From positions 1 through 21,866 of IMG/VR virus record IMGVR_UViG_2541047936_000002: a DNA stretch of 21,866 nt; one strand, written 5' to 3'. This document shows positions 3,001 to 6,000 of this stretch, one piece after another. Each line of letters opens with the position of its first letter. Position 1 is the first letter of the stretch. A program made the position numbers. The DNA is from a virus (taxonomy: Duplodnaviria > Heunggongvirae > Uroviricota > Caudoviricetes).

Positions 3001-6000
3001 AACGTCGTCACATACAGCCATCGCCATTGAGCAATCTTCATATCGACTGAAAATCGTCCCAGTAATCCGGCATCATCGGCTTCAGCAATACATTGCATAA
3101 TTCTTAAACCGTGAGAATTTGGATAATCGTATTCACCATCATTAAGCCGCTGTACGGCCTCAACATAATCAATGGTTGTATTGCCAATTTTTATGCCATG
3201 TGGCGTAACTTCTGGTCGGAACTCTGAATGATTCATAATGTTTGCTCCTTTGCTGGTGGAATAATCGTGTAACCCGCTCTTTTTGCCATCCACAGAAATG
3301 TATCCATGCAGCCAACGAATTCATTATCCAACAGATGTTTTGAGTAAATTACTTTCCCATTTTCAATGGTTAGCAACACTCTTACTTTTTCGTGTATTAC
3401 CCCCCCCTGCTCAGGCTCATTCTGCATTTTATTTCGTGCTGATGTCTCCATTATTTTATCTCCCATAAGCCTTGCGCAAATACAGGTTGGCTATATGAAG
3501 ATAAGAATCTCCATGTTGTGCAATGAGGCAGGCAGTTTTATACGATGCCTTATGTTTCAGGAAGGTCATAACATAATCTCCTGCGAATAAAGGTTGCAAC
3601 AATCCCCGGCGATAAAACCGTAATAAACATTCAGGGAATATTTATTGTTATTGCGCTAATTCTTTTTCGGCAGCAGCTTTTGCATATTCACATGCAAAAT
3701 TCAGAATTTCGCTGCCAAGTACTTTTGTTTCGTGATTACTGGACATATGTAATACCTGTGTTGCATGCAATAAATGATAAACATTTACCGCAAATGAATC
3801 AGGCTCCAGACAAATGCCTTCGTAATTATCTTGCTGTGAGGTTGTTTCTGTCATTGCTCCTGAAGTGCATGCGAGCCTGTTTTTGACAATTCTCTTTCCT
3901 CTAATCACTATATCGGCAACATCTATTGCCTTTACAACCTCCGGGAGAAGTTCCTGGTTTGTATAACCAAAGTTATCAACATGGAGAACAGTTATGTTTT
4001 CGAACTTTTTCATGGCTTCCTCAGCTGACATGTATGTTCTGTTATATAGTGAGTCTCAGAAGTGTTTTCATATTGAGACTGTTTCCGCAATGGTTGAGAG
4101 AAATGTCCGTATGTATCTTGATGGCAGAAGTGGCGATTATGTCACTCTGGCTTTCGGCTCCTCAGTTGAAGAACTTCGTGAAATTCGCTCTCAGCTTGTA
4201 GAAAAGCGCGGCGATGTTATTGCCCCATGGTATCTTATGAAGCCCGGGCAATAGGCCCACCAGTTAACAGCCACATCGGATCGCAACCAAGCGCATTAGC
4301 CAGTGGAATGATCTGGCTTGCGGGGACTTCGCAGATACCGCACTCCCAGTCGTTTATGGGGTCGTTGTAGGTGTGAATCATGCGTGCCAGGTCTGCTTCT
4401 GTCAGTCCAACTTTTTTACGTGCGGCTTCTATACGTGTGCCAATGCTTTCCTCCTGGATGTCTGGCTGATTTACGGTAACAGCAGCAGCGCTATTTTTTT
4501 CACTCAGCAGAGAAAGAGGATCGCATCCCAGGACATTTGCCATGGGGATTAGCATGCTGATGGTTGGTTCGTATTCTCCACTCTCCCATTGCAGGATAAT
4601 CTCTTCGTCAAGATCGAGCAGTCTGGCCAGTTCGGTGGTCGTCAAACCGCAGGCTTCACGTTGGGTGCTAAGGTTAACCATGTATTCAGGCTGTTTTTCA
4701 GGAGCAATATCTTGTCTTGAATAAAAAATTGCGTTTTTTACTTCGAAGGCGTAATCAGTGGCCAAAGCAACTATGGTATCGCCAATTTCACAGTATTCAT
4801 GGTTATTTGATGTAGCTAATAAATATCCAGCTTCAAAAAGAACGGCGGTATTTTTTAGCGCATCCAGTGGGTGCATGGAAAAGCCATTAAAAGTCAGAGT
4901 CGGTTTTGCCCTCATCTCATTAACTCCATCTATTTGGAATGAGAGCATAATAGAACCTGCTATAAATTATGGCAATAGCAAGTTCTATTTTTTTTTGGGT
5001 GATTTTTGTTACCTTATTGATATTTAATAAAAAATATTTCCTTTTTGATTCAAAGCAAAACTGAGTACCAGAATAAACGCCCGATAATATCAACCTTATC
5101 AATACTGGTTTCTTCATCTGGGTATTCGTCACTGTTGTAACTGCGGATAATCAATTTTCCACCTGGTCTTCTGTGTAGTTGTTTAATGCGCTTTAGTTGT
5201 CCGCCACAACCATCATCTTGTCCAATAGCATACAACTTACCATCGACAATTCTTTTGTTGTTGGTGTCAATAGCTACGGTCGTTCCATCAGGGATTATAG
5301 GCTCCATACTGTTACCAGTCGCCGGAAAACATAGCACTCCACTTCCGTCAGAGTTTGCGCCGATCCGACGAAGGGTAGCTTTTGAAAACCTAAGTTTTAA
5401 TCCATTATGATCTTCGCTAATCACTTTCCCAGTACCACACGCAAACTCAATATCTTTAAGAAAAGGGACTTCAACCTCATCATCACTTAGAGGCGTGTGC
5501 TCATCCCACGACTCTATCTTCCCCCATTCGGATTTTGGTGGAATAGATGGTTTCTTGTTCTCTGCCCTCATAGAACCTACACCAGAACTTAACCATTCCG
5601 GTGTAACACCGAGAGCATTAGCGAGATCGACAATTTTCGTTGTTCCTCTTGCATTCCCCGATGCTATTCGCCAAATGGTCGGTTGAGCCATGTTTGCTGC
5701 CTTAGCCAACTGAGCTTGGCTCATTCCCATTTCGTACATTGCAAAGTTGAGCCTATCTGCAAGGGTTCTCAACATGCTCATTTGTGATTTCGACATAAAT
5801 ATAGCCTCCGCTATTACATTGTAGATGCGTTCTATAAGTGTGTCTATTGCATGGTGGAATAGGTGTTGCTATTATTTTTTGATAGAAAAAGCAATTGTTA
5901 GGTGTGTTTTATGAAATCAGCGATTGAGAAAGCAATAGATATTGCAGGGGGCGTAAATGCATTAGCTCGCGCCGTTGGGGTCAAACAGCCATCTGTTTCC

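Follow-up and report, generated by a model that had tools for sequence, protein, structure and literature searches.

Face-to-face or antisense control is a known device in the switches of temperate phages, as at pR/pL of coliphage 186, oop/cII of lambda and sar/ant of P22. PMC5001618 gives a general treatment of such control. The locus described here lies in a stretch of 21,866 nucleotides (nt), positions 1 to 21,866 of the IMG/VR virus record IMGVR_UViG_2541047936_000002, and this whole stretch is called the window throughout. The locus is a cassette of three genes, placed where the CI-repressed early-left (PL) operon begins. It consists of a gene for an Xre-type regulator with two helix-turn-helix (HTH) stretches, a gene on the same strand for a protein of 121 amino acid residues and, on the opposite strand between them, a gene for a protein of 86 residues. 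In phage 80alpha of Staphylococcus aureus the gene ith-1 is nested in antisense orientation in the cI-tha-1 operon, and this noncontiguous operon has been shown experimentally (PMC11087260). In Bacillus subtilis the antagonist SinI is reported to share the oligomerisation surface of SinR (PMC3163267).

The antisense gene

The plus-strand open reading frame (ORF) of 86 codons is a genuine, conserved gene. Its product matches phrog_6104 over the full profile (expectation value, E, 1.5e-44) and has 20 homologues with 65-99% identity over the aligned part, or 58-84% over the full-length alignment. The homologues are 82-88 residues long and are found in E. coli, E. albertii, Salmonella and Citrobacter. 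The variable columns of eight loci are distributed over the three codon positions as 10/3/20 in codons 8-32 and as 27/16/50 in codons 8-66, a bias with chi-square p-values of 1e-3 and 6e-5, respectively. The ratio of nonsynonymous to synonymous variation (pN/pS) in this frame is 0.14 for codons 8-32, which run across the codons of a palindrome discussed below, and 0.33 for codons 33-66, and the other frames of the same stretch have ratios above 1 or are filled with stops. The AlphaFold model of the protein has block-mean values of the predicted local distance difference test (pLDDT) of 90-95 for residues 11-70. Its predicted topology is β14-19, β24-29, α30-42, β49-55, α58-73, so that the initial 32 residues of the protein belong to the predicted fold.

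Two shorter versions of the ORF, one of 54 residues (start at 4090) and one of 80 residues (start at 4012), were rejected because purifying selection is strongest in codons 8-32, which also contribute to the predicted fold. Met7 of the protein is not conserved in the relative locus L010, and Met1 is conserved together with its Shine-Dalgarno (SD) sequence: the ATG at 3994 is conserved and GGAG is retained in 7/9 loci.

No match to the 86-residue protein was found in Pfam, NCBIfam or PADLOC or among solved structures, and a profile search of PDB sequences returned nothing. Fold matches resembling GIY-YIG nucleases were weak and non-significant, and a significant match to this fold combined with the catalytic Tyr/Arg/Glu motif was not found.

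The 86-residue gene shares 20 nt with a neighbour on either side: its start lies head-to-head over the start of the 121-residue gene, and its end lies over the 3' end of the HTH gene. Because the initiation regions overlap head-to-head, the SD sequence of each gene falls in the first codons of the other. The antisense Leu10 codon of the 121-residue gene is CTC in 8/8 sequences, and the codon before Ile7 is AAC, GAC or GGC, so that its last base is invariably the C needed for the antisense CAT. The SD sequence of the 121-residue gene is mostly conserved, being GAGGAAGCCATG in 5/9 loci, with variants such as GAGGATGCC elsewhere.

The existing annotations represent this region only in part. The 86-residue gene is unannotated both in the GenBank record of Escherichia phage ASU11, which calls the 121-residue gene, and in RefSeq. 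In RefSeq NZ_CP031919 the 121-residue gene is represented only by a 68-residue C-terminal piece (3648-3854, its last 68 codons), and 3855-4234 is empty. The apparent 380 base pairs (bp) of intergenic DNA beside the immunity region are two overlapping genes. The 68-residue homologues returned by the protein search, at least those from NCBI/nr, may be start-site truncations and not free-standing domains.

The palindrome

An earlier note on this DNA, made from the sequence alone, had given the 121-residue gene its own promoter region with a palindromic operator. The elements on which this was based are all present: the minus-strand ORF 3648-4013 with the SD sequence GAGGA 4 nt before its ATG, a gap of 221 bp (4014-4234) up to the next minus-strand gene, and a perfect inverted repeat with 7-bp arms, AGTCTCA-N15-TGAGACT, at 4052-4058 and 4074-4080. 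The function assigned to them is not supported, as the region codes on the other strand and has no conserved minus-strand promoter. The gap is not non-coding regulatory DNA; it is occupied by the conserved plus-strand ORF 3994-4254. A consensus scan found no sigma-70-like site on either strand in 4014-4234, and in a relaxed scan of nine loci no minus-strand promoter of 8/12 or better was conserved upstream of the 121-residue gene. A search of Rfam with 3400-6200 at E ≤ 1 gave no match.

The palindrome is no rarer than chance. Perfect 7-bp inverted repeats are expected at about 0.33 per 221 bp, and the window contains 63 of them with spacers of 0-20 nt, compared with 33 ± 8 in Markov-1 random sequences. 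Such repeats thus occur at about twice the Markov-1 frequency window-wide, to which longer repeats counted repeatedly may contribute. When folded as RNA, the palindrome gives z-values of only -1.5 and -2.0, and no second copy was found even with 3 mismatches allowed. Judged by the codons of the relatives, the palindrome is a by-product of the 86-residue gene, and its surviving core is dictated by these codons. The arms match in 7/7 positions in L003, in 6/7 in L004, L005, L007 and L012, and in 5/7 in L008, L010 and L011. In the eight loci that retain the residues S-E-S-Q…I-E-T, all changes in the arms are synonymous for the 86-residue gene, apart from one amino acid change, E20A, in L012.

CI operators and the PL operon

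Only four exact ATAG-N6-CTAT sites exist in the 21.9-kb window (at 4950, 4975, 5801 and 5859), and all of them flank cI. The CI operators of this immunity type appear to have this form. The OL pair and a PL-like promoter lie directly upstream of the dual-HTH gene, which is therefore taken as the first gene of the PL operon. Its start at 4915, giving 226 residues, has a GGAG sequence 8 nt upstream and is the one chosen in RefSeq and in the earlier note. The ATG at 4948, which is the start in the ASU11 record, was rejected since it lies inside the -10 element of the PL-like promoter.

Because the 121-residue gene sits behind the CI-operated PL, its description as a lysogeny- or stress-controlled cargo gene is unlikely. 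The alternative that the palindrome itself is a CI operator of the OL type, which had also been named, is not supported: there is no ATAG-N6-CTAT site within 4014-4234.

The 121-residue protein and its domains

The 121-residue protein matches phrog_5451 end to end (E 1e-81). In the AlphaFold model its N-domain is formed by residues 9-45 in the order β-α-β-β (strand 9-12, helix 24-32, strands 35-38 and 41-45). It is followed by a disordered linker, residues 49-67, and by a hairpin of two helices, 71-89 and 94-120, with pLDDT of 75-84. By profile and pairwise comparison, this C-terminal hairpin is homologous to the N-terminal domain of the dual-HTH protein. The profile phrog_4587 matches both proteins (E 2e-28 and 9e-11), and BLASTP aligns the hairpin with the N-terminal domain of the HTH protein at 31% identity over 48 residues (E 9e-5). 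The dual-HTH protein itself matches HTH_3 in two stretches (E 4e-15). The N-terminal domain of the phiP27-type HTH protein was considered as a further homologue of the hairpin and dropped, as BLASTP gave no alignment.

Both domains are also found in other combinations. The N-domain is directly fused to HTH-HTH in proteins P0065, P0070 and P0071, and the hairpin is N-terminal on the HTH-HTH proteins P0076, P0078, P0081 and P0089 (library-wide E 1.6e-6 to 3.7e-4). Since both domains elsewhere sit on HTH pairs, the 121-residue protein may be regarded as a paralogue of the regulator without the DNA-binding domain. In P0058, P0061 and P0066 the N-domain is followed by unrelated C-terminal extensions, and in L012 the N-domain and the hairpin are separate genes of 67 residues each (L012 3117-3520). 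The protein P0078, of 333 residues, looks like the product of a fusion in which a hairpin-HTH gene was joined to the distal portion of an N-domain-HTH-HTH gene, as would follow from a deletion of the antisense gene.

The 121-residue protein has no Pfam family at E ≤ 0.1 and no match in NCBIfam or PADLOC. Foldseek comparison of its model with PDB gave generic helical hairpins only, with a best E of 1.5, and a profile search of PDB sequences with the N-domain returned nothing. A literature search by protein accessions found no papers, and a search for phiP27/L08 gave nothing relevant.

Conservation of the cassette

Relative loci were found through exact look-ups of diverged copies of either protein. 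The gene order after the repressor gene is an Xre-type HTH gene (106-262 residues), the antisense small gene and a gene starting with the N-domain. At its head the small gene overlaps by the same 20 nt, and at its tail it overlaps the HTH gene by 20-140 nt. Loci of E. coli, Salmonella and Citrobacter have this conserved triad downstream of the repressor gene, with two exceptions: L006 has no small gene, and in phiP27 the small gene is cut after codon 36. In L006 the 121-residue gene overlaps the stop codon of the HTH gene (ATGA), with zero intergenic DNA. The suggestion of the earlier note that the 121-residue gene forms a module with the dual-HTH gene 4235-4915 agrees well with these loci, in every one of which the pair adjoins, and with the domain shared by the two proteins. 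A scan of 3500-5100 detected no terminator-like site on the minus strand.

The cassette is narrowly distributed and has an unusual head-to-head antisense arrangement. In the analysis of the 121-residue protein, an exhaustive profile search of 1.84 billion representative proteins gave only 45 clusters, among them the HTH-HTH proteins named above. DNA matching part of the region is present in 270/5426 complete E. coli genomes, about 5%, and at least 80% of the queried stretch is found in only 10.

In the Stx2e phage phiP27 (L002 3548-4144) an unrelated replacement segment of about 490 bp truncates the small gene. On it are the annotated gene L09, in plus orientation, and an unannotated minus-strand ORF of 82 residues (3906-4154). 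The HTH proteins of relatives have tails of about 30-45 residues, rich in Pro, Gln, Ser and Glu, which are antisense to the 3' half of the small gene. They look like read-through over an open antisense frame (overprinting) and not like functional domains. The HTH gene of the window ends before such a tail.

Candidate promoter of the antisense gene

The plus-strand site at 3883-3911, inside the 121-residue gene, is a suggestive candidate for the promoter of the 86-residue gene on the basis of its conserved position. A 9/12 candidate site is present at the corresponding position in 9/9 loci, at -111 in eight of them and at -114 in L012, which has a one-codon insertion. The variant of L007 and L012 is TTGATA-17-TACGAT. 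The antisense codons V43-K44-N45 are invariably GTC AAA AAC, and the neighbouring wobble positions vary freely.

Prophage context

The window belongs to the lambdoid prophages. It is 99.8% identical to Escherichia phage ASU11, the closest phage record, over the 1.7 kb queried (3400-5100), and 3600-4960 is 100% identical to a prophage of E. coli O145:NM FWSEC0002 (the RefSeq chromosome NZ_CP031919 is 100% identical). The coordinates of the features are given in Table 1.

Table 1. Features of the cassette and its surroundings (window numbering, except for the last row)
Feature	Position	Strand	Remarks
int	1-1287	minus	
xis	1321-1575	minus	followed by several small unknown genes
121-residue gene	3648..4013	minus	phiP27 'L08' family, phrog_5451; ORF + SD
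C-terminal helical hairpin of 121-residue protein	about 3651-3830	minus	residues 62-121
N-domain of 121-residue protein	about 3870-4013	minus	residues 1-48
Promoter-like site TTGACA-17-CACTAT	3883..3911	plus	candidate; inside 121-residue gene, 111 nt upstream of ATG of 86-residue gene
SD GGAG of 86-residue gene	3983..3986	plus	7 nt before ATG 3994; inside codons 10-11 of 121-residue gene
86-residue gene	3994..4254	plus	phrog_6104; antisense to PL operon
SD GAGGA of 121-residue gene	4018..4022	minus	inside codons 9-10 of 86-residue gene
Palindrome AGTCTCA-N15-TGAGACT	4052..4080		codons 19-29 (S-E-S-Q-K-C-F-H-I-E-T) of 86-residue gene
Dual-HTH (Xre-type) regulator gene	4235..4915	minus	first gene after PL
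PL-like promoter TTGCCA-17-TATTAT	4975..4947	minus	10/12 consensus match in promoter scan
OL, two CI-type operators ATAG-N6-CTAT	4950-4963, 4975-4988		overlap PL-like promoter
cI	5050-5796	minus	
OR, ATAG-N6-CTAT	5801-5814, 5859-5872		exact; plus two one-mismatch copies (region 5801-5895)
cro-like gene	5909		diverges from cI at this position
Antisense-encoded HTH tails of relatives	L003 3691-3803; L004 1662-1774; L005 3760-3872; L007 3649-3767		numbering of each locus

Accessory cargo is found rightward of these genes. It comprises a DNA methylase (15122-15841), a Lom/Ail-like outer-membrane protein (15977-16636), the type III secretion system effector NleG (16866-17435), a DUF4765 protein of 1128 residues on the minus strand (17613-20999) and a fragment of an ISL3 transposase (21394-21789).

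Proposed mechanism

The best reading overall, which we consider reasonably likely, is a noncontiguous operon that runs from PL through the HTH gene to the 121-residue gene, with the antisense gene nested in it and the 121-residue protein as a partner of the regulator. The 121-residue gene would have no promoter of its own and would be read from PL together with the HTH gene, making it an early gene that is silent in the lysogen; the ATGA overlap without intergenic DNA in L006 suggests such co-transcription. The 86-residue gene would be driven by the TTGACA-17-CACTAT site within the 121-residue gene. In the lysogen, CI would keep PL off and the 86-residue protein would be made from its own candidate promoter, and its transcription would damp leaky expression of the 121-residue gene and the genes downstream. 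After induction, convergent transcription from PL and the complementary RNAs would shut down the 86-residue gene. The two mRNAs would be complementary at both ribosome-binding sites, and mutual exclusion of the two states would be expected from this. At the protein level, the 121-residue protein probably assists or opposes the PL-proximal regulator by means of the hairpin that both possess. It could dock on the regulator in this way and either deliver its N-domain or titrate the regulator, as SinI does with SinR.

Several observations weigh against this reading. Both promoters, the PL-like one and the plus-strand site, are consensus matches only. The plus-strand site has only 3/6 matches in its -10 element and was missed by the standard scan; the conserved ADIVI…VKNR motif of the 121-residue protein confounds the interpretation of its conservation, and the site is still found in L006, without the 86-residue gene, and in phiP27, with a truncated one. 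The N-domain is modelled with low confidence (pLDDT 55-64). The N-terminal domain of the HTH proteins of the phiP27/L004/L006 type has no detectable similarity to the hairpin, and the hairpin types of the 121-residue and HTH proteins do not co-vary across loci. In addition, L016 has an N-domain-HTH-HTH fusion together with a separate upstream HTH gene, so that the split and fused forms are not simply equivalent.

Alternative explanations

The model of the earlier note, in which the 121-residue gene is independently regulated cargo with a promoter in 4014-4234 under a palindrome-binding protein, perhaps the dual-HTH regulator, is highly improbable. The 5-bp core TCTCA…TGAGA is retained in all loci, but it is fixed by the codons of a region that codes on the other strand. 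The palindrome is exact and an operator inside a coding sequence is not impossible; against this stand the chance expectation of 0.33 and the wobble changes in the arms, which are uncompensated in 6/7 differing loci. A weak TATATA/TATAAC-like element does lie about 25-35 nt upstream of the ATG of the 121-residue gene on the minus strand, yet this element itself decays through wobble changes, the promoter scans gave no match and L006 lacks an intergenic region altogether.

A defence or toxin-antitoxin-like module appears quite improbable. In it the Xre-type protein would be the antitoxin or regulator, the 121-residue protein the effector and the 86-residue protein, expressed in the lysogen, a sensor, an inhibitor or the actual exclusion factor. 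The cassette is mosaic and variable and adjoins the repressor gene, a placement like that of rexAB and sieB; however, the HTH and 121-residue genes, lying behind a CI-operated promoter, are expected to be silent in the lysogen, the very state that requires defence. The HTH and 121-residue genes overlap in L006 as in toxin-antitoxin pairs, but no toxin family of Pfam or NCBIfam was matched, and the 121-residue protein is composed of accessory domains of regulators. Inhibition of a prophage defence protein by a small antisense gene has a precedent (PMC11087260), and the weak, non-significant GIY-YIG-like fold matches of the 86-residue protein point in the same direction, although PADLOC matched neither this protein nor the 121-residue one and recognised the HTH protein through its generic HTH only. 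A role of the 121-residue protein that does not depend on the regulator, such as early host takeover or a part in the lysis-lysogeny decision, is also unlikely; in that case the shared hairpin would reflect only common descent by domain shuffling, and the 86-residue gene would be an unrelated moron. Independence would accord with the lack of co-variation of the hairpin types, with the HTH partners that have no detectable hairpin, with the unrelated C-terminal extensions of the N-domain in P0058, P0061 and P0066 and with the loss of the 86-residue gene in phiP27. It accords poorly with the strict adjacency of the two genes in all loci, with their translational coupling in L006 and with the repeated fusion of both domains to HTH pairs. 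The 86-residue gene, moreover, is always head-to-head with the coding sequence of the N-domain, with the same 20-nt overlap.

Possible significance

The noncontiguous operon with a regulator partner, as preferred above, may be extended to a three-component switch mirroring Ith/Tha. In this extension, which is distinctly unlikely, the 86-residue protein made in the lysogen, from a gene antisense to and overlapping the start of the 121-residue gene, would antagonise an early two-piece regulator, composed of the HTH protein and the 121-residue subunit docked through its hairpin, at both the RNA and the protein level. It would thereby set the threshold of lytic growth or excision in widespread enterobacterial prophages, including relatives of phiP27. 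If true, this would be a previously undescribed kind of switch; the 86-residue protein is without recognisable fold relatives.

The nested antisense layout and a regulator without a DNA-binding domain are both devices known to make switches bistable. If bistability holds here, prophage induction could be influenced, including that of relatives of the Shiga toxin (Stx) phage phiP27. Prophages in pathogenic E. coli, Salmonella and Citrobacter carry the cassette immediately after OL/PL.

Comparison with known systems

The order of CI operators over PL followed by the first early-left genes is the same as in lambda. In contrast to lambda, these first genes are the Xre-type dual-HTH gene and the 121-residue gene, not an N-type antiterminator, and the palindrome is not a CI operator. 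In coliphage 186, lambda oop/cII and P22 sar/ant, convergent or overlapping transcription beside the immunity region makes the lytic and lysogenic programmes mutually exclusive, and the transcription predicted here would have a similar layout. The antisense partners in those phages are promoters or non-coding RNAs, whereas here the partner encodes a conserved protein with a predicted fold under purifying selection.

The pair of an Xre-type regulator with a helical domain and an adjacent small homologue without a DNA-binding domain resembles SinI-SinR, and also SlrA-SlrR (PMC3163267). The helical domain of SinR is C-terminal; in the present pair it forms the N-terminus of the regulator and the C-terminus of the partner. 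The 121-residue partner also carries an extra N-domain of 48 residues. The Pfam model for SinI/SinR multimerisation gave no match, and the HTH protein matches generic HTH models only.

The closest similarity in gene layout is with ith/tha. In both cases a small coding gene lies on the opposite strand in an operon beside the immunity region, apparently with its own promoter, so that the transcripts would overlap and the two expression states should be mutually exclusive. Unlike ith/tha, the overlap here is head-to-head over both initiation regions, and the proteins are unrelated to Ith and Tha in sequence and in fold. The polarity is also reversed: the host operon in the present case is the CI-repressed lytic PL operon, and expression in the lysogen would fall to the nested gene.

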